A DNA stretch of 64,000 nt from Lophium mytilinum. Taxonomy: Eukaryota. The stretch spans positions 1,131,566 to 1,195,565 of the forward strand of contig MU004195.1 in NCBI GenBank assembly GCA_010093605.1. The letters run 5' to 3'. The notes below the pieces were generated by a model. The model saw only the letters and a program-made list of their open reading frames with translations. It made no database searches and was not told where the DNA came from. Position 1 is the stretch's first letter; the number at the start of each line of letters is the position of its first letter. Below, in pieces: positions 6,226 through 24,315 of this stretch. Both the position numbers and the translations under genes were made by a program.

Positions 6226-7479
6226 ATGGCAAAAAGAAAGAAGGGCCCCAAGGCACCGAGAAGGAAGAAACCGAAGGAAGCACGGGAAGAAACGCCATGG
6301 AGACCCTCGGACCTGATGAATCTGATGGATAAAGGCCTGGAAGATCTTATTGGCGAGGAGGCGTTTCGACACCTCTACAAGGCAGTTACTGATTTAGATG
6401 CCGATGGAGATGCAACAGTCTCGATCAGTCAGTGGAACTCCCTGATTGAGATGGCGGAGAGTTCAGTTCGGTCGACTTCCGACCCCGATATGAGCCCAGA
6501 AACTCTCGATGGCCAGGATGGATACTCCGGTTCGAAGCAGCCAGAGAGCTCTCACTCGTCTCCTAACACATCAGAAGAAGAGACGGCGGCTGAGGAAGAG
6601 CCGAAAGCCACCAATTCCGAGATTTACCATCCGACCCACGATCTGGAACCAAAAGACTGGGCCGACTACACGGGCCGCATCCTCCATAATTGGAGCGCCG
6701 AAAAATCCCTTGCTGAGGTCGTCCTACACATCGCATGCTCGCAGGGCTTCGAACAGGCTACAAAGAACACGAAAACGTCCGAATTTCTCAAGAATTGCCC
6801 GAAGAATCTTCGCGGCTTCTTGTTCATCGAAGGGTTCTACAAGACAGGGGAACATCTCGTCGGCTTCATACTACCGAACCAAGAGCATCCCAGAGCTATG
6901 GACTTCCGCACCGCTGTCGCACAAGCCCCAGTTTTCGTTACACCATGCACAGACCTCGACCTTACATTAGCTAAAGACCCCTCGCAGGGTTGGCAGCATG
7001 TTACTAGCATCATACAAGACGCCACCGAGGAGCAGGACTACGACTCAGACGCCACCGAAATAGACGACAACTCGGGGTCGGACGACGACATCACAGATTG
7101 CTACTCGGCGAACATTTCTGAAGTACTCAACGGCAAGCATCGGGCGTATTATAAGCTCAGAGAGGGCCTCCCCATCTACACCCTAGTACAGCTGCGATCG
7201 AACTACTCACTGTTCGTAAATAACGAATTGACTACTCCAAATACGAGGTACAGAGGCAGACAGCCGCCTCCGGGTCCTGACGAGATCTGGCCGTCGAAGC
7301 CCAAGCGCGACAGGGTCGGTTGCATTCAACGCGAAATCGATTCGAGCTCGGGTTACAAAATCTCGCCGAAGGGAGAAGAAAATGACAGGGCACACGGGTG
7401 GTTCTCCACGGCACTAAAGTGGGTTGAAGAGGAACATCGACGAAACAGGCGACGCGGATGCGAGAAAAGATGGCTCTGA
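6226..7479 (+). CDS. Orphan hypothetical protein (~417 aa) with basic N- and C-termini (NLS-like) and acidic linkers
   Basis: Intronless 454-codon ORF 6115-7479; first ATG at 6226 (MAKRKKGPKAPRRKKPKE). Protein-like composition but no family recognised. Confidence 0.65.
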   Translation: MAKRKKGPKAPRRKKPKEAREETPWRPSDLMNLMDKGLEDLIGEEAFRHLYKAVTDLDADGDATVSISQWNSLIEMAESSVRSTSDPDMSPETLDGQDGYSGSKQPESSHSSPNTSEEETAAEEEPKATNSEIYHPTHDLEPKDWADYTGRILHNWSAEKSLAEVVLHIACSQGFEQATKNTKTSEFLKNCPKNLRGFLFIEGFYKTGEHLVGFILPNQEHPRAMDFRTAVAQAPVFVTPCTDLDLTLAKDPSQGWQHVTSIIQDATEEQDYDSDATEIDDNSGSDDDITDCYSANISEVLNGKHRAYYKLREGLPIYTLVQLRSNYSLFVNNELTTPNTRYRGRQPPPGPDEIWPSKPKRDRVGCIQREIDSSSGYKISPKGEENDRAHGWFSTALKWVEEEHRRNRRRGCEKRWL

Positions 7480-7699
7480 TCCAAAGATGTTGGAGATCAT
7501 ATCAGGAGGCTGTGCTGGGAGATGTTGGCTAGAAGCCTTCTGCGGTGTGGCTTGATGTTTGGGGTTTCTGGTGTTTGGGGTGTTGAGTGTAGGTCACTAC
7601 TATAGGAGTTGGACTGGAGCGTGTTATTGGTATCGGCGACTGGCATAAGCAATACAGAGCAACGCAGTGGCGGGGCACTTTGCGATGGTTAGTTCAAGA

Positions 7700-10600
7700 A
7701 ATTGATGAAAACCACAGAGGAACGCAGTTTTAAGGCATCTCGTGAGTTTGGTATTACTTCTAACATATTATCTTGTCGTTAGGTCAAGCTGTGAGGTCTC
7801 CGCGAACGAATTGCGCCACCAGACTCGTTGCGACTCATCCGAGTTATATACGGCTGTTGGTGCACTATACAGGACCTGTCGACTATGTATCTATCGAGAG
7901 GTGCTGCGGAACATTATTGCTACCACTACCCAGTACGTAAGTCGTATTAATCTTGGTTTTCGAAGTAAAAGGCATCAACGAAACTCGCCATGAAGAGCCA
8001 GATCGCGAACACAGCACCCATGCGATTATTTTCTGTGCAATTGCGGGATAATTTCTACGAACATTATTGGTTGTTTCCTTGCTTTTGTTGCTCGCAGCGA
8101 GAACACATCGGGCTATCAACATTTGGAAATAGATGGCTTCATGGGACATCACTATCCAGCCAAATCCCACATCACTACTAGGGACACCAGTGCTTGACCA
8201 CCAGGGCCATGTTGGCGTTGTTGGCCGTGTTGGTGTTTTGCAACCGGAACATGCACATATTCTGCTCTCCGTGCTTAGAAACATGGCCAGTTTGTGAAGT
8301 TTTTTGTCGTGGGCTGAACGCAGACAGGGAACGAGACTCATTCCACCAATAATTACGATCTTTTTCAAGAAATACGGAGCGGAACGACGCCACGATTTAC
8401 TGGTTTCCACGGCCCAGTCACCATGAAAGCCAACCGTGCAGACTTTGGTCGGACATCGAGATGATTTTCTCAAGGTGAAGCCCCATATGCATTCTTGCTG
8501 GTTTGTTTTCACCAGCATGGTACATCCGAATGAAGCATTTTTACGCCCCAAAACAAAGCCATATTTCTGCACTGCCGTATCTTTCATGACGGCGATTCTA
8601 AACCCAGCTCTTCGGTGAGATCAGAATTATCCGACATGCAAGAATTCGCCAGTGTAGGTTGAAGATCTCATCTTTTTTTTGATTCCAACACGCATAACTG
8701 AGCCAAGTTTAAAGAAATCGGCCGGTCTAGACTCTCGATTCCAGAGTTGGAACTGAATCTCTTGTTGCAGTGTGGAGAGCACCGTTTGAGGTGGCCCAAT
8801 GAGACTTAAGGTTATGGAAAACACTCGCATTGCTGATTTTGCAAAGGTGTCGAGGTGCTTCAGACGGCGGCATCCCAGAAACGTTGGGTTCACCACACGG
8901 TGGCATTTCAGAACTTGAAGAAATTCAACCTGACATAACGCCTAGACTCTCGATTCTTGGCACAAATGCAACATTCGATCAGTTGAATGACTGCTTCGAC
9001 ATTTGCGGAGTACTCATGTTTACCCTATCACGCTGATTCCACACACAGCACCCATGGAGTGCTCCCACCGTAGCCATTTCGCAAAGAATGCGGAGACATA
9101 GCGAATACATCTGTTGCCTTCTTGCATGGCGACTGGCGAGTGATGGTAGCCCGGAAGCACGAGGCATGGAACCTAGAATCTGTCTTTTCGGTTCCAGAGA
9201 GTCGAAAAACATCTACCAAGGTTACCGAATTTCTTTTTTCAGATTAGCAAGAGCACAGTTCAATTGGACTAGAGTCGCCTCGTATTGGTGTTCACATCCC
9301 AACAGGACGTGGAGGTGTGGTAGCACTAGTTCTGGTAGTACGTCCGGAAACCCTTCGCGAACACCGGTCCATGGTTACACGCAGGCTTTTTGTTGCAAAG
9401 AGTCTTCTGGCCATCGTTGCACCACGCCAAGACGTAGAACTAATTTTAAGATTGTGGGCTAGCTTTGCTGCCCAAACGCATATGATCGTTCAGTCCACTT
9501 TCTTTCAACTACCTCGGGACCACATAAGGCAGAAGAACACCGAGTCTCAAAATCGGGGATAATTCCCGCGGCCGGATACTGGAACATACGATCTTGGCAT
9601 GTTCGTAAGGACAGAATCATAGACTGACTCAATACTCTGAGGGTTTTGGCACCGTGCTTCCCATATCACTGAAGAGTGGCATATATTCATCAGTTACTTG
9701 TCCTGGTCTTGTTGGTAGAACCAACCAGAGTCTTACTCGCTCCACATTCCTGAGGTTCTCCAGGGATTCTTCGCTTTTCTGGAATTATCCAAGTTCTCCG
9801 AGACCATCATTGATAAAATCGGAGCGTTGTAGATTTGTCAGATCGTTGCCATGCTCTTATTTGATAGCAGCGACCAGAACCTTGCTCATTCCACATAGTA
9901 TGCTAAGTGTGCAGAGCTCTGATTGCTGGGAATCCTTCAACGTCTCCCAGATCATCGTAGGTAAGGTCGGAGTGGATCCGAAACAAAGTAAGATGAGAAC
10001 AAACGCGTTTCCGGCGCGACAGCTCATGGCCATCGCCGTTTTCTTTATTTCTACCAAGTTCCACCCATTTTTGACGTATCCTTCGGCTTTTCATCCAACC
10101 TTGGGTTTATCAATATTTTGAGGCCTGTTGGAACAGCAGAGGCCACCAAAAAGCATCAAGCTCTATAACCAGGGGTTCGTGGGATTAATGGTCGCAAACA
10201 GCCCATGGAGTGGATGACGGTACTGTTCTGGCTTGGCTACCAGAGTGCAGCAGACCCCATACGGCTCCTTGAACACGATGCTCAAACTCGGCGCATATTA
10301 TCCTAGACTAAGCTTGATAATTGGAGTAAGCTCAGTAGCTTCTATCCTCCACATGTGGCCGCAGTAATAGAGATCTTCAACTGACTCCGCAACGAGAGCA
10401 CGCCGACAGCATGAAATGCTTTCCGTCGTACGATTGTTCGGTGGAAATCCAGATACGGTGCGATCATGAACCAGAGACAGGTATTTCCTTTGAAGCTTTA
10501 ACGAGTGCGGCTCGGTCATGGAAGGTCCGAATACAGCTTTTTTTGACGATTGATCCGGACGAGACGAGCTGCTGGCAACATCGTCGGCTTGAAGATGTGA

Positions 10601-13450
10601 CTTTGTAGCCGGAAAGGAAGACCAAACCACACATGACATCCTGCGGAACATTGGTTTCCTCACCAAAGCTGGAAAGCATATATTTGCTACCAGTATCTCT
10701 CTGTCTATTAATAGAATCGCCCGAAAAGCGCCACTCATGGAGTGACCACAGGTCTCCTTTTTCAGCACCCATGATTCTAGTTCCAGGTGGATTCTCGTGA
10801 TCGTTCGATTTCTCGAACGCCTTCATGCTTTAGGTGTGCATCGAGCTCTTACGAGTATTGATGGAGCCAGGATCTTGAAATTGATCCTAAGCAGGAACAC
10901 GAGACGGGACTCATGAATCATAATCGTATCATTGGGTACTAACTGATAGAAGGAAAGCCCATGACACCGAAGCGGGTATCGTGATAATCTTGAGAAAAAT
11001 AACAAATTCGATGGACTCGAACTTCTTGCCCATAGCCAAGATATCAGAATTTGGCGGAACCCCAGGACATCGCCAGAACGTCGAGAGTATTACACCATTC
11101 TCCGGCATACCCGAGAGTACAACGACCTCGCAAAAGCTCATAGTTGAGAGTGAATCGGTGTTTATCTAACTCCCAGTTTCTCAGTCAAAGATACTGACAG
11201 CATTTGCAGGTTGGACGATCTTTTCATGACAACAGCGAATCGGACGTTACGATTAGGCTGCCGATGAGAACTAAACAGCTTCATAGTGCAAACCACCCTC
11301 GAGAATCTGATAGATATACGACCTAGGCCGGACAGGACAATGACACCTTCCATAGAGATCATCAGCTGCTTATTGGAATTCAGATCAGACACCATACGTT
11401 TGATGGCTCTCCTAAATTGGAGTTTCGAAATGGCCTTCGTTCTTACTCCGGCATTCCATGTAGCATCTCGGAGCTAGTTATGATTCTGGACAACATGCTG
11501 CCTGAGCTCCGACTCTTTTGCAGCTGGAGGCTCAGACAGGACATGGAAGCGTCCTGCACCTTAGAGTTAAAGATCGCCATTGCTCGCTGCGATAAACAAT
11601 TGCGAATCTATAGCGCATTCGAGCGGGAACGGAAGCCGGCATCGCACGATGTGATGGGCACTGTTTCGTTGAGACTCTGGGACCCATAGGATACGAGTGT
11701 GGTATTGTTCATCAATCACAGCGGTCGTGCGGATTGAAATCTTCGTACTCATTGCTGGACTGATCCCATAGCTTGTATCTCCAGGTGATGCTGAACAGAC
11801 AGCAATCAACACACCATCGTCGCTTTTGGTGGCCCTATTTGGACAAAGCTACAGGCACGCTGCCATAGAGTCTCAGAAGAGGTAGTGTCTTACAGGCATG
11901 AATAAGCTAGCAAATCCGTTTCGAAAGCTCGCCTGCCCAAAAGACCACCATAATTATGTTTAGTGGAGTGTTTTAGCATCTGTAGCAGCAGTTCAACACT
12001 CTCGAGAGAAAGCGGGAGCACAGCACCTACTTCTGGCAGGTCCTGAAGCTTTGGACGTCTGGCTCTGAAAAGCGCCATAGCATAAAATGCTCCAGGGTTT
12101 CGAAGTTCTCAATGTAGCACTCTGACTAACGCCACACTGGACACTGTGAACAAAGTTCATCGGCCATTATGGTAGTTTTTTTCTTAGTCTGAGACCTGCA
12201 AGCGGTAATCGACATTCCACGTCACTAGCACGTCGTCGGAAGCTTTGGCGTCGAGCGGAGACTTCCTAGGACGCTGCAACTATAATGGGTGACACTCCGC
12301 AGTTTGATCGGAGCAAAGAGCAAACATCTCAGTGACATGAAGCCGAGGAAGGAATTATGATAAAATTTCAGTGCCCACGTCCTCTGCCAGAGACTAAAAC
12401 ACTCCAGGACATTTCCGAACGGGAATAAAGACTTTTCGAGATACCCGGACCATAAAACTCGTCGTCCTCCGTATTTTTATGCCTCAATCCTCCCACGCCT
12501 CCTGGAAAGAACGACACTCCAGAAAATGCGGGGACTGCGGGACCCAGTTTCGAAAGGCGCAGCCTACCGGCTAGGATCTGGAAGGAGTTTTGCCCCTTAC
12601 ATCCCAACAAGGATCCATGAGGGCTCATAGAACCGTGATAGACCTCTGTATTTCGATGCCACAAAGATCGAAACACCGAGCCCAGCACGGGGATAGCGAT
12701 CCCATTCTTTTCGATCGACGACTCCACTGAAGATCTGGAAGATTCAGTCACAGGGCAAAGTAGTGTAAGACATTTGATCCCACCATAGCTAAGTCCAACT
12801 TCCAGAGCACACAGCATGTTAGTATCGGCACGGCGTGACCAATCGATCCATTCATCGAAGACTCCAAGTTACCACGCTCATAAAACTTTTCCTTGCATCT
12901 CTTCGTTCGCAAAATGGTCAACGCCAGGATCCAGAGCACACGCCATGAAGCTCGGCACATTCTCTTTAATCATGGTGAGCCACACGGCCCAATACTTAGT
13001 GTTGACCAGATAGCTGAAGAATCCGAAGGCACCGTAAATTTTTGGTGCAAAGGTAGTCGACAAGATGACGGAATCGAACTCCTCACACGCCATGTAAACC
13101 CGGACACACAGTCGATGCAACTACCACTCCGCGCCAGCCGTTATGCTTAGGTTCGTTTATTGTTGAAACCCCCCGACCATGCTCCTTGCTAATCGCTTGT
13201 CTTAAAAGACCCCCGACCTCCCACTTCCTCTCAGTGAGAGAGAGATGTTGCCGATCTACTAGTCCATCCCGGTCATTCCCCGGAACCCTTGAAGATGCTG
13301 AAGTTCCCGAATCCATGAGGGAATCTGTCTTCCAGCTGTGGAACAAAGCTCCAATGTTTTCCCACCATGGGAATTCTTCTCCGGTGATTTGATCACCCGC
13401 TCAAGAGGTGAGGACCCCGAGCAGACCATCACTGGAGGCTGTTCCGCTTG
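7700..13450 (+). pseudogene. Possible decayed long coding sequence or element relic, unidentified
   Basis: About 6 kb with no convincing gene; the longest ORF is 234 aa on the - strand and unrecognisable. + strand frames give protein-like patches (e.g. IPEVLQGFFAFLELSKFSETIIDKIGAL, DGLELLAHSQDIRIWRNP, IEIISCLLEFRSDTIRLMALLNWSFE) broken by stops and frameshifts. Confidence 0.25.
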
Positions 13451-13607
13451 ACGAGCGTTCCAATACTCAACACGCGACATGACTGGAAACATATCAGAAT
13501 GTTGGCGAGTTGATACACGAACATATCCCAGCCATTCATTCTCTGCTGCTTTGAGGTTTCCAAATGTCCAAACACACGCATGTTGGAAATACAACGCGTT
13601 TGATAAA

Positions 13608-15356
13608 GTCCAACTCCCACCCACCATTGAGTCTCGTTATTGGACGTATTGATCGACCACTCCGCCCCAGCCACATGGTCTTTTCGTAGCTGAGGCCGCG
13701 GAAGACGACAGTACGCCTCTAGCTGACAGAAGGCCTGGTTAGATCCGCTGGCCGCTCCCATACAGTCTCAATACAGAAGTGTTGTTCTCTCGATGGCTAT
13801 GTCCATAATTTGTATTCATAACAATTTACTGTTAAATTGCCTGCTGCACACGCGTTTTCAAGTCCGCCAACTTCATCGAAGCTGGGTAGGATAGGTTTTA
13901 GCAAAGGCACGACTCCGCACTCGCCATGGATAGTGCCATCCGGGTAATAGTGTTGATCGACTACTCCGCTCCAGCCATAGCAGCTTAGGAAGCCAAGTTT
14001 CGAGTCCGCCAATTCAATCCATGCTTAAGAGTACTAAGTAAGATATTGGAAAACTGCCCGACTCCACCCACCATGCCCCCACTTGAGGCATGGTGATTGA
14101 ACAACGACTCGGCCCCAGCCATAACACCTCTGTAGACCTGATTTCCAGTCCGCCAACATCATGAAAGTAACTCTGGCAGATTTTGGCAAAGTCCCAGCTC
14201 TGCACGCCCCATGATTTGGTATGATAGGGATATTAGCATTGAACAGCGACTCCGCCCCAGCCATACGTTTCCTGTGTTAGTAGTTTCAAATCCGCCAACA
14301 CCATAAGTGTTTTTTGAGAACGATTGTAACAGAGGTCCAACTCGGCACCCACCATGTCATGTGGGGTGCCATAGCTTGAATGCACCACTCCACCCCACCC
14401 TCCATCGTGGAAGCAAAATGGGCATTTGAATCACTGCTCGTCCCCAGCCATCAGACGTTCGTAGACCGAGTTTCAAGTCCGCCAACTTCATCGCAGCCAG
14501 ATCGGGTAGTGTTTGCAAAGGCACGACTCCGCACACACCATGAATTCGATCCTTTCTTTGTTTTTGATGAGCCACTCCACCCCAGCCGTGTGTGGGATCA
14601 AGTTTTTAAGTCCGCCAGTTCCATATTGGTGCCCTCATACTGATGCTTCAAGGCTCCCTTTGGTAGAGGTCCAACTCTGTACCCATAACCAGCATAATTT
14701 TTATTTATTTGATGCACCACTCCACCCCACCCTCCATGGCACAGGGTGAGTATGTGTAGTTGGACCACTACTCGTCCCCAGCCATACCACCAGGCCAAAG
14801 CCAGTTTTCAAGTCCGCCAACTTCATAAGTGTTGAAGCGGGCAAAGTTTGACAAAGACACCGCTCCGCACACACCATGATGTAAATCGGTGTGACGTTTT
14901 TGATCTGCCACTCCGCCCCAGCCATGAAGGCCTTGCATGTGATGATTAAAGCGGCCAGCTTCATGTATTGCAGTCAGAATTGATTTGTACCCATTCCGGG
15001 TATTCATGGATGAAACACGGAGGCACCGCTCCACAGCACCCATGTCTCGTGGCTCACTGGGGTTCTTCAGTCCACTGCTCCTCTCGGTTCACCACATGAC
15101 CCATTAGCTGAAGGAGTTTGATGCACCACTCCAGGCCAGCCTCCGTGAACGGAGGATGGAAGATGGGCTTTTAGACCACGACTCGTCTCCACGCACCATT
15201 GACGAGTCAACGGCATGGTTTGATTCACCACTCAACCCACTCTCCATGGCAAGGGAGGGATCAGTCTGCTTTTAGACCACACTTCCTCCCCACCCACCAC
15301 CCATGGTTAGATTGTGCTGATGGTGCGTTTTTGATCCACCACCCCTCCCCACCCAT
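13608..15356. repeat. Degenerate non-coding array of ~30 related cores (consensus ~acTCCGCCccAgCCAT) with variable spacers; ~142 bp and ~334 bp higher-order periods
   Basis: TTTCAAGTCCGCCAACTTCAT is identical at 13856, 14471 and 14806. GCAAAGGCACGACTCCGCAC is at 13901 and 14515. ATGCACCACTCCACCCCACCCTCCAT is at 14380 and 14712. CTCGTCCCCAGCCAT is at 14437 and 14771. ACTCCGCCCCAGCCA is at 13659, 14249 and 14910. Confidence 0.9.
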
Positions 15357-15416
15357 CGCTTCCATCCTCTCGCCTTTTGTCGCCGCAGTCCCCCACCCAC
15401 CATCGTATCCATCTCT

Positions 15417-16007
15417 CTACATCTTCAAAGCCCTAAACTCCAAAGTCCCCGGGTCCATTCTTCTTGAACTCTTCTTTTGCTTGCTCACTTGATCAACCCA
15501 ACTCTCCCCACCACCTCCCTCTGCAGAACCAAATTTCTCGGGGGGCCGCCTTTCTCTTATACCTCCCGCCACCCTCGAAAGGACGCCGCTGACTAACCGC
15601 TTCACGTGTCTATTCGGCCCGGTATTGTCCTATCTATGCCTGCTTTGATGGAAGGGGAGGGGGAAGGGGAGGGCTGTGTGACGCGCGCCTCGTCAGGCTC
15701 CGAGGGAGGTTACACGAATGCGGTCGAGGGGAGGGGTGTGATAGGGTGGAGGTGCTGCGGTGAGCACGTGGTGAGATTCCGCATCGGAAAGTTGAGGGAG
15801 GAGCCGGTGGTCGGAGGGGGGCGCGGTGATGGGGAAGTCGATGGGATTGGCTGGGAGGGAGGGACTCGGAGGAGGGGGTGGTCAGGAGGGCGGGTTTGAG
15901 GGGCGAGTGACGGTGTTGATGATGCCGGTGCCCGTGCTTCTAGCAACGCGAGGTAGTATTCGTTGTACTCGGGGCCTTTGCTTCCGAGAGCGTGTGAGGA
16001 TGTTCAT
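15417..16007 (-). pseudogene. Possible Pro-rich gene relic with three in-frame stops
   Basis: ATG 16007 is in frame with ORF 15417-15605. The 197-codon frame reads MNILTRSRKQRP..PPS*PPPPPSPSLPANPIDFP..LGA*RG..HR*DNTG..KM*. It has the same 5' C-rich / 3' G-rich skew as intact genes in this window. Confidence 0.3.
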
Positions 16008-16618
16008 GATGCGTGATGGCTGTGCTGTGTGGTAATTGGTCAATTGGTCGGAAGAAGGGGGAACGGAGCTGTCGCGGTGAGAGTTTAGGAAATTTTATGA
16101 CCTTCATGCTTCGGGCGACATGTGATAGCAGGCTTGAAGTCGACGCTGTGTGATGCTAATTGGAGAAAGAAGACAGATATGGCTGCTAATTTGGGCGCGA
16201 GCGTTGTTGTGCAACTCAATGTCTAAGCATGCACTGGCATGTGAGCGTATAGAGAGCATCTGACGTCCTTAGTGCGTGCAGGCTGAAGGTATTTTGCGGA
16301 AATGAACGAGCCCAGAGAATTGAGAGCACGATATTGAGATATCCAAGCTTAGAGTGGCATGTGAGTATATTGCTAGCGCCTGACATAGAGGCTATGTTGT
16401 TCAGAGCGGGGAGGCAGAAGAGCAGAACACGCACGCAGAAGAGAGCAGCAATACTCCAAAAAGCCTCTAAAATTCTGTACACAGGCTGACTAATATGACA
16501 AAGGCCACTCAGGGGTGTGTGCCTGCGCTGGATCCCACCTTTGATACACGCATCACCAGAAGGGCAGTTGACGGTAGGAAAGTGTGCATGTGTGCTGCTA
16601 AAATCCACCAATACTGCT

Positions 16619-17383
16619 CTACTCGTCGTCCTCGTCAAATTGGCCCTTGGGACCGGGTTTGCTTTGGACGAGCATGCCCTTGTAGCCGGTGATGGGTTCG
16701 GATCCTTGTGCCTGGAGGAAATTAGTCCATGGTTTCGTGTGTATTGTCGCATTGACCGGATAGATCGCACCTTGAGGTACTCCTCTGATGCCTCTTGCCA
16801 CTCCTTGGTCATGGTCCGCGGTGCGTCTCCGCTAGCGAGTTGTCGAGTGCCCCAGAAGAGGACGCCGGCCGCAAAGACACCGATAAATGTGTAGAGAACG
16901 ACCTTGGTGGTCTCGCCGGGTGGCGGAAGAGCGCGAGGACCGTGGGGGCCAAAGGCGATCCAGTAGGCTGTTGAATGGTGAGTTTCGATATTCCTGTCTC
17001 TGGACATGTAGTTGCCGAAGCTGCAGGCATCAGGACATCAAAAATGACGCCCCGCCCCCACAACCATCCGCATCTCCCCAATGCCTCTGGAAATTATAGT
17101 ACGCACCAGCCTTCTTCTCCTGCAGAGTTAACTCGTTCCAGTCGACCTTCATCCGGTCCCTAAGCGTCATCCACAAATCGGCCTGCTCCTGCGGCGGCAT
17201 GTCCTCCCATCGCTTCTCGATGTTGGCGAGCGTCGGGTTCGAGACGGCGTGGGCCTGGCGAGCCTGCTGCTTGATGCACACAATAGAGGCAGGGCGCGAG
17301 AACCGCGCGGCTTGACGTATCGCGGTCGATGGGATGAGGGCAGCCGAGCTTGTCGAAGCTCGGATGAGCGAGGAGCGCAGCAT
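16619..17383 (-). CDS. COX5: Cytochrome c oxidase subunit V (COX4/COX5 family), 3 exons
   Basis: Mitochondrial presequence MLRSSLIRAS.. and motifs NPTLANIEKRWEDMP, ELTLQEKKAAYWIAFGPHGPR, PRTMTKEWQEASEEYLK and PITGY. Introns 17106-16968 and 16770-16712. Confidence 0.95.
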
Positions 17384-17600: not shown

Positions 17601-18907
17601 CAGGGGCGGGAGATTGCTCAAATTCTCCATTTCTTTTCAGCTCGGCAGTGTCGCAAGGCAGTAGGCGCGGTCTCGCGATCAGAGGAGGCATAGCAGTGAT
17701 GAGAGCGGCTCTTGAGCAACAGGAGCGGGCACAATTCACTCGGGGAGTCAAAACCATATAGCTGGAAGAAAAGCATGACTGAAAGCTGCTCAAACACCCT
17801 CGCTCCACAGCTCCACCCCATTCGCTGGGCTGCGAGGGCTGCGATGGAGCTCGGGCCGGCCAATCGGCATGCCGCAATTTGGGAGTGGAGTCTGACGCAA
17901 CTTGGCCCTCAGCCTTGCGCATTCTCCCAGCGGTAGCAGCCTCATCCCAACGTCTCACGAGCAGCCCTACCGACATCACGAGATCCGACGCAGGTACTGT
18001 GCTGAGCACTCTCGGTCGCCGCCCGTCGTGTGACAAAGGCGGTGATGACCACTCCCCAGCTCGCCGCGGCCATATCAACCCTCCCGGCCGCGGACAGGCC
18101 AGTCCCTCGCAGCGATGCAGTAACACCCACTTGGCGCGAGGGTTTTGTTTCTGCACGCCCGTTTGCTTCTTCAGCAACCCCGTGTGGTCTGCCTCTCCGC
18201 TGACCGGCCTCGCCCACCGAACTGCTGCGGCAATATCTCATCTTCGCCTTCGCATCCCACGCATGCGACGTTGCTTTCGATCAGGCGACGCGCGAGGGCC
18301 GACTGCGTAATGCTGAGCTGATATCAGTCTGCTCGCGCGGCCGTGGACGTCCTAGCTGCCGCGTCCATCGTACGGCTTGGTGGGGAGTCCGGCGCTGCAG
18401 TTGAAGGGATACACGGTTCGGGGACGATGAATATGTACAATGATATATACACTTCCGGCAGCAGAGGGCTCGGGAATGCAGTCATTAAGAGCACAGCGGT
18501 CCGGAATGTTTCCCGGGTGAAGTCGGCATCGTGGACAGCACCACGCTCGTCCGAGGATGAAGGACAGCTTCAGCGACGCGGCCGGAAGGGCGGGCAGCCT
18601 GTGCAGAGTAGTGCTACTTTTGCCGTGTTCCAGGCGCAGATTAGCTCTATCTGCTCAAGCTTTGGTGCTTTTTCCTGCACGTTGTTTTGCAGTGATCCTA
18701 TGTGGAACTACTGCCCCGCCATTTCTCGAGCTATTAAACCGACACCCCGCCCAACAACTTCTCTCATCCTGCCTCCTCCCATCCACCATCCCAATTGCAC
18801 TCCCAAACACACTTCATCCTCCCAGATACCCTTTCTATAAGTACGCTCACCTACACCTTCCTTCTTTCTAAATCTAACAGCTCCCGCAGCCCATTTCCAT
18901 AGCCATC

Positions 18908-20224
<1,317 letters not shown>

Positions 20225-21054
20225 TGATTAAACCCCAAACCTCTGAATCCAATTCTCCAAGCTCGAGTCTGCTTGCGGGGGGCGTGTGTGTGAGAAGGCG
20301 AGTGAGTGAGTGACGAAAGGAAACCTAGCGTTTGTGATGTTGCCAGCTTTCTTCTTCTTACTGCTGCCCCCCTTTCAAATCACCAGCCGCCCGAACCCTT
20401 CTTCCTCTTCTTCTTCAGGCCACGGAACGAAACGAAAATGTGATACATAGGATTAAATTACGACCCCAGAAAAGAGCGGTGTATAGACAAATTGATACCC
20501 TCTTTCATCACCTTGCCGTCCCAGTGCGTGCGAACCTTGCGTCTTCAAATCAACTTTCTTCGTCGTGGTTCCTCTTGTGTTCTTGTTTACCGTCAACAGC
20601 CGAGCAGCCCCATCTAACGTTCGCTCGACTCGCGTCGGCACGTGCAACAAGAGATCGCCCGCCCACGAACCCCGGATTCTCCCCCGCCAAACCACCGCGT
20701 TATCTAGCGCCCGCGACTCGCCTTGGGCGTTAAGCTCGGTCCGAAGGAGGACTGATTTGCTAATTGCTATGCTTACTGCCTGGGTACGTACTTCCGAGAC
20801 TGCTGGCTACTGCACCTGGCGTGCCGGATCTCGGAATATGTCGCGTGCGGTGGGTAGGGGTTTGAGCTGTGCCACTGGAAGCTTCTTATTGGGTATCTTG
20901 TGGCCTAGGTATGTCCCTCGATTAGATACAGAGGTGGCTCAAGTATTCCGACTTTAAACCTATGCTAAACGCCTGAACGCCTATTCTCCTGTCGTCCATT
21001 CTTTCCGTATCCTAACCCCTCAACCGCTATTCCTCTTCTCCTCTCGCTCTCACA

Positions 21055-21459: not shown

Positions 21460-21785
21460 GGTTGATCGATGTTGATAGCTGAGGCTCTTGGTAGGATCTG
21501 CGAGCTTTGATAGAGGGGTGGGTTAGGGGAGGTTCAGGGAGGTGAGTGTGTTCTGGTTCTTTGTTGGAGAGTGAGACATGGAAATGACGGTGGTGGTGAG
21601 TCTGGGATGCACGGGTTGCGGGTAGGAGCTGGCGGCCAGCGCATTGGAAGCGGGTGGTCGATGCGGTTGAGGGGTCTCCTGGAGGCCATGTACCTGCGAG
21701 CAATATGTTAGCAATAGCCACATATGAAGTTTGAAATTGTGATCTCACAAGTGGGGATCTCCAACCGCGATCTTAAGATACTTTC

Positions 21786-22843
21786 TTAAAATACCTCTTC
21801 AGTCACCCTCCTCCCATACCACCCACTCAACTCATCTCCCTCCGTCTCCTCATCCCTCCCGACAAAGAAGTCCGTCATCTTCATCTCATCCACCTCACCC
21901 TCCACCGGCCACTCCACCTTCAACGGCGCCCCCTTCGCCTCCAACAGCTCCTTCGCCGTCCCCCAGCTAAACCGCGTCTCGCTCCCCCACCCAAACACCG
22001 GATCCATACTCCTCTTCAACCACCCACTACACCTCGCGTCACTCGGATACCCACTCCCCCACCCCCCCTCCCCTCCCGCCCCCACCACCGCCTCCGCACA
22101 CACCTCCAACGCCGCATCCCGCGTCACCTTCGCGCAAACACTCGCCGCCGACACACAGGGATACAACGAATCCGCCTTCTTCGCCACCGTGATCTGCACC
22201 GTCGGGAAAATCCTCTCCAACTTCCGCTGATACACAACGGGCGACCCGATGGTGTCGATGTAGATCTGGGTTACGTTGACGCCCTGCGCGAGCACGTTCT
22301 TGATGAGCTCGATGGTCGCGTCCATGGCTTGCGCGTTGAGGTTGTACGCGGAGGTGGGCTGCAGCATGCCGGCGGCGATGTCGCGCGCGGACATGACTTT
22401 GGTCGCCCAGCCGCAGCTGGCGTGGAGGTCTGTCGAGGCGGTGCAGAGGGTGCGCATGAGGGAGGAGCGGACGGCGGGGGTGAGGACTTTGGAGTCGTCG
22501 AAGTGGTGGGCTGTTGCGAGGAGGGAGGTGTGGAGGGGGAGGGGGAGGTAGAGGAGGCCGTAGACCATGGGGCCTGGGGGGTGGTGTTAGTTTGGGGGGT
22601 GGTTGGGAGGAGGAGGGGTGGGGTACCGAGAACGGGTCCTCGGCCTGCTTCGTCGACGCCGAGGACGCATTCGGTGGACATGTCGGCGGATATTAAGGAG
22701 GGGATGGGGGAGTAGTGGGCGTAGGAGCGGCCGGCGAGGACGTCGGGTTTGTGGATGGAGGGGGCTATGAAGACGGCGTCGGGGGGTGTTTCTGCCTCGA
22801 TGTCGGCGCTGGTCATGACGGTGTCTTCCATTGTTTCGGCCAT
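21786..22843 (-). CDS. RNH201: Ribonuclease H2 catalytic subunit A, 2 exons
   Basis: GVDEAGRGPVLGPMVY (across intron 22626-22574), DDSKVLT, IYIDTIG, KADSLYPCVSAASVCAKVTRD, GSGYPSD and RFSWGT. Confidence 0.95.
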
Positions 22844-23293: not shown

Positions 23294-24315
23294 ATGTTCA
23301 AATTTATCAAAGAGAAGCGCCAGGAGCGCGGCCGTTCACCGCGCGAAAGAATGGCCGCATCCTTCACACGTCCACCGCGTGAGCGATCTCTGAGCATCCC
23401 CCTCCCGCCCCCGACTCTTCTTGCGCGGCGCAAGCAGAAGACGAATACCCAGATGCAGTCGGCACTGTTTAGCAAGCTACCAGCCGAGATTAGAAAGATA
23501 ATATGGGAATACGCGATTGCGGACGACGACAAGCAGATACACATCCTACAGTACAAGAAGCGGCTACGCAACATGCCCTGTAGCTACCACCGCGGAGAGC
23601 AGCCATCAGTCTACACCGGGTTTCATAAATGCGCGGGATATGAGGGGAACTACGGGAATGCGCTTGAGGTGCAACCGGGCGCACAATTATCCCCTTTGGT
23701 CAAGACTTGTAGGCAGATGTAGGTTCTATCACCAATTGACAAATATTGAAGCTGGAGCTTGGTAACATTTACTGACGTATGTGTAGATATACCGAAGCAA
23801 TCGACATCCTCTATTCCCACACCTCCTTTCGCATCGAGCATCTGGATACCCTCACATATTTCTCCACATTCGTCCTCCCACACCATTTCAACCGCATCAC
23901 GACGCTGCGTCTCCTGTGGTTCTTCCACATCGACATCTTCGAAGACCTCCCCAACCCCACCAAGCCGCCGCACGACCTCGCAACCTGGCAGCAGACATGC
24001 GATATCCTGGCCGGGATGGAAGGGCTGGTCGATCTGGACATCGAATTAAGCACCGAGACTAGCTACTTCAAGAAGGTTTCTTCTAGAGTGCGACTATTGC
24101 AGTCTATGAAGGACATCAAGCCTAAGGGCCGGTTCGACGTCACAGCTTGGGCGCCGTGGCCCTGGTTATGGTTTACTCAAAAAGAAGAAGAGGATGATAT
24201 GGAGGGGGTGCAGGCCCTCTTTAGTATCCTCTATCCCGATCTTGGAGGATTGCAGTTGGAGGGGATGCCGTTTCGGATTGTGGATGCCAAGTTTTATTTT
24301 CCTTCTGGTGTATAA
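23294..24315 (+). CDS. F-box-like/DUF7730-type hypothetical protein (paralog 1), 2 exons
   Basis: QMQSALFSKLPAEIRKIIWEY motif. Intron 23719-23786 gives TCRQIYTEAIDILYSHTSF. Later W..L.GMEGLVDLDIEL. Confidence 0.8.

Follow-up and report, generated by a model that had tools for sequence, protein, structure and literature searches.

We analyzed a 64,000-nucleotide stretch of Lophium mytilinum DNA (contig MU004195.1 of assembly GCA_010093605.1), here called the window, in which a tandem array of related cores and divergent spacers lies beside a respiration gene. The window is fungal nuclear DNA. Between an open reading frame (ORF) that ends at 7479 and the gene for a COX4-family cytochrome c oxidase subunit IV (cox4), it has approximately 8.5 kb without a recognizable gene, and the array occupies the right-hand part of this interval. 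The cox4 gene (16102 to 17374, minus strand) has two introns and matches Pfam PF02936 (E values of 5e-18 and 8e-16). It is very highly expressed, with a spliced RNA contig at a depth of 10085 and joints at 16710/16770 and 16967/17107. The two share a strand, and the 3' end of cox4 is upstream of the array.

Anatomy of the array

Positions 13597 to 15359 hold approximately 30 copies of one motif, all in the same orientation on the minus strand. An earlier sequence-only reading of the window had described about 30 cores of four types (A, B, C, and D) that follow one another in a recurring order, mostly end in CAT on the plus strand, and lie at near-constant distances. All of this is present in the sequence as described, including the spacings, which we re-measured. 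The four types are also all there, but they are variants of a single unit of 48 to 51 nt rather than separate cores; the A-type unit is approximately 9 to 11 nt shorter than the others. The consensus of 32 units starts with ATGGCTGGGGCGGAGTGG and ends with ATCAAAAAC, and this consensus and its alignment revealed a nucleotide motif common to all four core types. As judged from the extent of profile matches, approximately 33 nt of each unit are conserved and approximately 13 to 18 nt are free.

With an nhmmer profile of the 32 units, 30 copies had an E value below 1; they lie from 13114 to 15359, every one on the minus strand. Beyond 12471 to 15359, the same profile made just three matches in the 64-kb window, and these were at chance level (E ≥ 5). 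With up to three mismatches allowed, the C-type 18-mer occurs nine times in the window, always on the minus strand and between 13124 and 15356 (0.08 times in shuffled sequence). The A-type 21-mer occurs five times and the B-type 26-mer three times, each against an expectation of 0.00. Of 37 anchors, 30 start with ATG when read along the minus strand, which corresponds to the CAT of the plus strand. Spacings on the minus strand were 39, 41, 35, 40, 40, 40, and 40 nt from A to C; 48, 48, 48, 46, 52, 48, and 51 nt from C to B or D; and 51, 65, 50, 51, 50, 56, and 51 nt from B to A. Tandem Repeats Finder, run with a minimum score of 30, reported no array in 13000 to 15600, because whole units are too dissimilar. 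The observation itself is real and statistically solid.

The array is best preserved midway and degenerate at either edge. Profile matches, anchors, spacings, and identities all define a central, best-kept block (13854 to 15359, minus strand) with 27 copies at an E value below 1, in which the cycle is C-B-A and, twice, C-D-B-A. Two outlying minus-strand copies (13597 to 13678) are a C-type copy with 1 mismatch in 18 (E = 0.0004) and a weaker B/D-type copy (E = 0.62). They are separated from the central block by a repeat-free and partly AT-rich gap of 175 nt (13679 to 13853), inside which an RNA contig ends, at 13726. The array extends further than the limits first drawn for it (13608 to 15356). 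Degenerate copies lie at 13078 to 13142 on the minus strand (a C-type 18-mer with two mismatches at 13124 to 13141 and a B-like copy, with E values of 0.37 and 1.9, also recognized by eye). At the minus-strand 5' edge (15360 to 15540, minus strand), weak copies at 15403 and 15529 were placed by eye and are not among the profile matches.

Two open frames on the minus strand lie in the degenerate tail of the array, at 12368 to 12868 (166 amino acids [aa]) and 13259 to 13636 (125 aa). The first had no relative by Pfam or by word search among proteins of similar length, and the second had only a subthreshold match to PF04328 (20.4 bits, cutoff 25). Both are probably chance frames in stop-poor sequence.

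The cores and the spacers have fared very differently. Mean pairwise identity was 0.80 for A cores (n = 8), 0.77 for C (n = 7), 0.71 for B (n = 7), and 0.97 for D (n = 2), and shuffled cores gave 0.33 to 0.46. For the spacers, the means were 0.25 (A-C), 0.27 (C-B), 0.29 (B-A), 0.19 (C-D), and 0.25 (D-B), and shuffled spacers gave 0.16 to 0.33. The real spacers are therefore at the level of shuffled sequence; a few individual pairs are still similar (maxima of 0.58 to 0.68). Cores that are 71 to 97% identical beside spacers like these rule out equal neutral decay, as the sequence-only reading had argued (0.71 to 0.97 versus 0.19 to 0.29). The lengths of the spacers are another matter. A-C spacers are 17, 19, 13, 18, 18, 18, and 18 nt long (four of seven exactly 18), C-B spacers are 21, 21, 25, 21, and 24 nt long (three of five are 21), and B-A spacers are 21, 33, 20, 21, 20, 26, and 21 nt long. 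Because spacer length is kept and spacer sequence is not, constraint on core sequence and spacing, which had also been proposed, follows reasonably, although this is not proof. The same reading had suggested helical phasing. This was not supported: 40, 48, 51, and 142 bp correspond to 3.8, 4.6, 4.9, and 13.5 turns of 10.5 bp, with no whole-turn register.

RNA over the array and its reading frames

Three sequencing runs cover the array region. One of them, X3, is not on record as RNA, and we treated it as such after intron-like joints were seen in its contigs. There are 10 of these joints over 17 kb, and they are absent from the DNA runs X1 and X2. Therefore, X3 contains RNA. The joints delimit ten GT..AG introns of 49 to 139 nt in the flanking genes (16711 to 16769, 16968 to 17106, 18841 to 18889, 18918 to 18970, 19023 to 19098, 19163 to 19264, 19949 to 19997, 21692 to 21746, 22573 to 22625, and 23719 to 23786), and flanking genes with spliceosomal introns mean that the host is a eukaryote. 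X3 contigs carry no strand, start, or end information, and over the 17 kb they have no differing letter, so that X3 provides no cross-species comparison.

One X3 contig of 2301 nt (13726 to 16026) spans the whole central block at a depth of 31.9 and matches the DNA letter for letter, free of gaps. It is colinear with the DNA, and no splice joint is listed between its ends. Therefore, the array is transcribed, and its dominant form is unspliced. Toward lower coordinates the depth of X3 falls in steps (31.9, 9.77, 3.22, and 1.28), and it is 0.49 to 1.9 over 8134 to 12669. These steps and the sharp edge at 16026 are weakly suggestive of a minus-strand RNA that ends in the AT-rich gap near 13726. 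A loose end at 15352 in X1 and X3 was considered as a possible paralogous array and rejected, because the extra depth of approximately 5 in a 567-nt bin fits only a match of approximately 20 to 35 nt to a C-rich tract.

Some short elements lie between cox4 and the array. A TATA-like heptamer (15555 to 15561, minus strand) is just upstream of the first copies, CACGTG palindromes are at 15603 to 15608 and 15765 to 15770, and a purine-rich 12-nt unit occurs twice on the plus strand at 15650 to 15673 and reads as a pyrimidine tract from the minus strand. At 16030 to 16049, an 8-nt unit repeated 2.6 times creates two CCAAT boxes on the minus strand; the boxes are 53 to 72 nt downstream of 16102, where the cox4 RNA contig ends, and shortly upstream of 16026, where the array contig has its edge. 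From a reading of the letters, the TATA-like, CACGTG, pyrimidine-tract, and CCAAT sequences are candidate promoter elements. The TATA-like heptamer, the CACGTG pair, and the pyrimidine tract may be the promoter of the array itself.

Neither strand has a frame that stays open through the array, in agreement with the sequence-only view that the repeat is not intactly coding. In 13700 to 15400, the longest ORFs from stop to stop on the array strand are 106, 90, 82, and 80 aa. Stops are scarce in every frame alike, and per-segment stop counts do not discriminate between frames. Pfam found no real match above its cutoff in 12 ORFs of both strands, and two word searches over the array found no protein relatives among proteins of lengths near that of each query.

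RNA family searches were also negative. Rfam assigned no family at threshold (its one match scored 19.6 bits, where the gathering score is 40), and ARAGORN found 0 tRNA genes in 11000 to 17000. Read on the plus strand, the A core looks by eye like a tRNA B box, with 10 of 11 places in agreement. However, there is no T-stem and no tRNA, and we rejected this likeness as chance.

A candidate binding platform and its rivals

Our preferred reading, held tentatively and with rather less than even confidence, is that the array is a set of non-coding, transcribed, nucleotide-constrained sites that acts as a multivalent binding platform. Selection would hold the motif nucleotides and the spacing of the copies and leave the intervening sequence free. 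Approximately 30 copies of a motif of approximately 33 nt, in one orientation and at steps of 40, 48, or 51 nt, would provide many sites in fixed order and spacing, and these could load many molecules of one sequence-specific factor with high avidity. We lean slightly toward action on RNA, as a G-rich minus-strand transcript, over action on DNA. This is because all sites are on one strand, as sites read in RNA require, and because the well-kept block is inside the RNA contig and most of the degenerate copies are outside it.

If the cores are under selection, this would be a clean natural case of a fungal multivalent nucleic acid platform. Its functional part (approximately 33 nt, in thirty copies) would already be delimited by the decay around it, and its binding partner could be captured directly with a core oligonucleotide. 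It would be a tractable addition to the few known long noncoding RNAs (lncRNAs) and regulatory DNAs that work via tandem sites, and it might bear on the control of the adjoining, very highly expressed respiration gene or act elsewhere. Retention of the cores and their spacing in related species would strengthen the interest sharply. Should the array prove to be a dead orphan gene or a neutral repeat, it would serve as a warning that a contrast between cores and spacers alone proves no present function.

Several results weigh against a binding platform. The first is that no factor emerged as a candidate partner. SYGGRG, the six-letter consensus of CreA/Mig1 sites, has a density of 15.3 per kb on the minus strand of the array, 1.1 on its plus strand, and 2.6 in the rest of the window, a sixfold enrichment, but it is short and part of the core by construction, and this proves nothing. 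Several other fungal factor sites were compared by eye and had single-copy matches only, and we claim none of them. The second is that metagenome scans found no related array in other species, and long-term conservation, on which the reading chiefly depends, is presumed. An exact search with the A-core 21-mer had 0 loci, and a gapped pattern of three cores had at least 117, but none among the matches listed fits the unit profile at an E value of 1 or less. These loci are unrelated repeats. A full-text literature search also had no comparable fungal array among the 15 titles listed, which is no proof of absence from print. The third is structure. Seven aligned units had no conserved structure beyond a hairpin of 6 pairs (consensus fold of -4.08 kcal/mol), and, compared with shuffled sequence, the minus strand folded only a little better (z-score of -2.13; 1 shuffle in 20 did as well) and the plus strand no better (-0.14).

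The remaining points against the platform are signs of coding and the position of cox4. Of 36 spacings, 20 are divisible by three against an expectation of 12, although seven of the anchors were placed by eye and duplicated units are not independent. In their best frames, chosen after six frames were tried on four small core families, A cores had a ratio of nonsynonymous to synonymous change (pN/pS) of 0.45, C cores of 0.63, and B cores of 0.69. One consistent reading, with 46 to 48 codons per unit, runs through both of the longest ORFs within the array (82 and 80 aa). Finally, cox4 is upstream on the same strand with approximately 300 times the depth, and the RNA over the array may be read-through from it.

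The coding signs are the basis of the alternative that survives best, which we consider unlikely but worth serious attention. Here the array is a decayed orphan gene on the minus strand for a lineage-specific repeat protein, with a unit of 46 to 48 residues made of three related sub-repeats. Its cores would have been structural motifs and its spacers free loops, and it would now be dead, frameshifted, and interrupted by stops but still transcribed. In addition to the excess of spacings divisible by three, this reading has a composite frame in its favor. If C and B cores are read in one frame and A cores are shifted by one base, then the recurrent 40- and 50-nt steps are in frame, and this accounts for the 82-aa ORF at 14357 to 14605 and the 80-aa ORF at 14034 to 14276, both on the minus strand. 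For pN/pS, the frames that score best differ between A and C cores by exactly the offset of the composite reading. Cores diverge from their type consensus by approximately 10% (0 to 3 mismatches in 18 to 26 nt), which by our rough estimate fits the decay implied by approximately 8 to 9 frame breaks.

However, no such reading closes. B-to-A steps are 51 nt in four of seven cases and 50 nt in two, each beside randomized spacers. Because both steps recur, they cannot both be in frame, and one late frameshift that was then copied cannot explain them. With all cores in a single frame, six of seven units break it at the 40-nt step. This step is in frame only if A and C cores are in different frames, and selection on protein then fails to explain why A and C share a nucleotide motif. 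A dead gene also provides no reason for fixed spacer lengths. In the in-frame pieces, the GC content at codon positions 1, 2, and 3 is 0.60, 0.45, and 0.48. The third-position value is 0.60 to 0.86 in three of four control stretches of the window and 0.52 in the fourth, which is over cox4.

Searches for protein relatives also spoke against a decayed gene. A profile of the six in-frame pieces, made for the composite reading only and open to proteins of any length, found no relative among 1,835,955,588 representative proteins. Its two matches with an E value of 0.001 or less (8e-5 and 3e-4) were both unrelated repeats on inspection, and, as described above, Pfam had none. A protein atlas search with the 82-aa ORF returned no usable match; its recognition score was 1246, whereas 91 of 100 proteins from known families reached 2300. 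The sequence-only reading had named a frameshifted relic of a His-repeat protein as one result that would overturn it, and no relic of a known repeat protein was found by the Pfam, word, and profile searches.

A neutral explanation does somewhat less well, and we think it improbable. It holds that the array is a functionless complex minisatellite whose GC-rich cores are kept similar by short-patch gene conversion or by template switching among them, with drift in the remainder, and that the RNA is read-through from cox4 or noise. Arrays homogenized by exchange between units have a well-kept middle and degenerate edges, which is the pattern here. The depth of RNA is approximately 10,000 over cox4, upstream on the same strand, versus 32 over the array, and its stepwise fall resembles the tail of minus-strand termination. 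However, this explanation needs homogenized stretches of 20 to 30 nt with identical borders in approximately 30 units, and known conversion tracts are far longer. Whole units have not been homogenized, as the silence of Tandem Repeats Finder indicates, and the fixed spacer lengths are left unexplained. As for read-through, the depth in the bin from 15505 to 16071 equals that of the 2301-nt contig alone, and no listed contig crosses 16027 to 16071 to reach cox4, although this hole proves nothing.

A small-RNA precursor with guide spacers, akin to small nucleolar RNA (snoRNA) or CRISPR arrays, and a subterminal binding array of a mobile element, both suggested by the sequence-only reading, are together very improbable: the array does have a repeat-spacer appearance with spacers of similar length and is transcribed, but its RNA was seen only as one continuous 2301-nt contig with neither an Rfam family nor a tRNA-like element, the 13- to 18-nt spacers have no above-chance match elsewhere in the window, every copy has the same orientation without an inverted partner array, the flanking ORFs scanned between 6112 and 13120 have no Pfam domain and no transposase, and the introns of the flanking genes mark a eukaryotic host.

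Known systems and the neighboring sequence

By the tests that define these classes, the array does not pass as a repeat-coding gene, classical minisatellite, or CRISPR array, nor as a member of a known RNA family or as transposon ends. Two known designs come closest to a binding platform. Repeat A of mammalian XIST/Xist is reported to be a tandem array in an lncRNA, with a conserved GC-rich core and a variable spacer, and to bind protein (PMC12101419). The fungal array is likewise transcribed and frameless, with GC-rich conserved cores and free spacers, on a comparison made within the array only. It differs in having approximately 30 copies rather than 8 to 9, three to four alternating core variants, spacers that keep their length and are not T-rich, and no predicted helices between repeats. 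It also comes from a fungus and is unlike in sequence, and protein binding is only proposed for it.

The second parallel is in imprinting control regions, where YY1 or CTCF sites are reported to form tandem arrays within DNA that shows no other conservation (PMC2665242). Here, too, tandem copies of one putative kind of site are set amid unconserved sequence. However, those arrays vary between species in number and spacing, whereas spacing within the fungal array is tight, and DNA binding is only a candidate role for it. Fungi are not known to have YY1. The array belongs to neither the Xist repeat A class nor the YY1/CTCF class.

It is possible, although we doubt it more than we do the platform itself, that the array represents a fungal lncRNA gene or chromatin element built as a true repeat-spacer array, with at least 30 constrained cores and length-kept spacers that serve as a high-avidity platform for one sequence-specific factor. 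Such an element would have no relative in any library searched and would be a counterpart of Xist repeat A or the imprinting arrays by design, not by descent.

Other repeat classes share some features with the array. Like variant-repeat minisatellites, it has head-to-tail units of tens of bases, a GC-rich strand bias, and a best-kept middle. A classical minisatellite has head-to-tail units that are at least approximately 70% alike over their full length, and the units here fall short of this, being too dissimilar as wholes for Tandem Repeats Finder and alike in only approximately 33 of 48 to 51 nt. Fungal tandem-repeat proteins, which include secreted and cell wall proteins and peptide precursors cut at dibasic sites, often have no relatives outside their lineage. 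Periods of 16 to 17 and 46 to 48 codons, and short conserved motifs with free stretches in between, would suit such proteins, but the array has no open frame, no clear codon usage signal of the genome, and no relative. In CRISPR arrays, as here, repeats alternate with unrelated spacers of similar length. In this case, however, the host is eukaryotic, the repeats are 71 to 97% identical and occur as alternating variants, and the spacers, 13 to 25 nt long depending on where the core ends, have no target match in the window.

The sequence on either side of the array is unequal in activity. To its right, beyond cox4, an ORF at 19265 to 20227 is GAPDH-like, an identity that we presume from recognition by eye. 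To its left, 7567 to 13236 (approximately 5.7 kb) has near-zero RNA cover (depth of 0.49 to 5.3), and none of its scanned ORFs had a Pfam family or, by word search, a relative; this silent gap is unusually long for a neighbor of very highly expressed genes. Within it, 190 nt at 8743 to 8935 are matched by other contigs of the same genome (X1 and X2) with 14 to 21 differences, mostly transitions, and two 1-nt gaps. As far as the letters go, these matches point to a dispersed repeat family.

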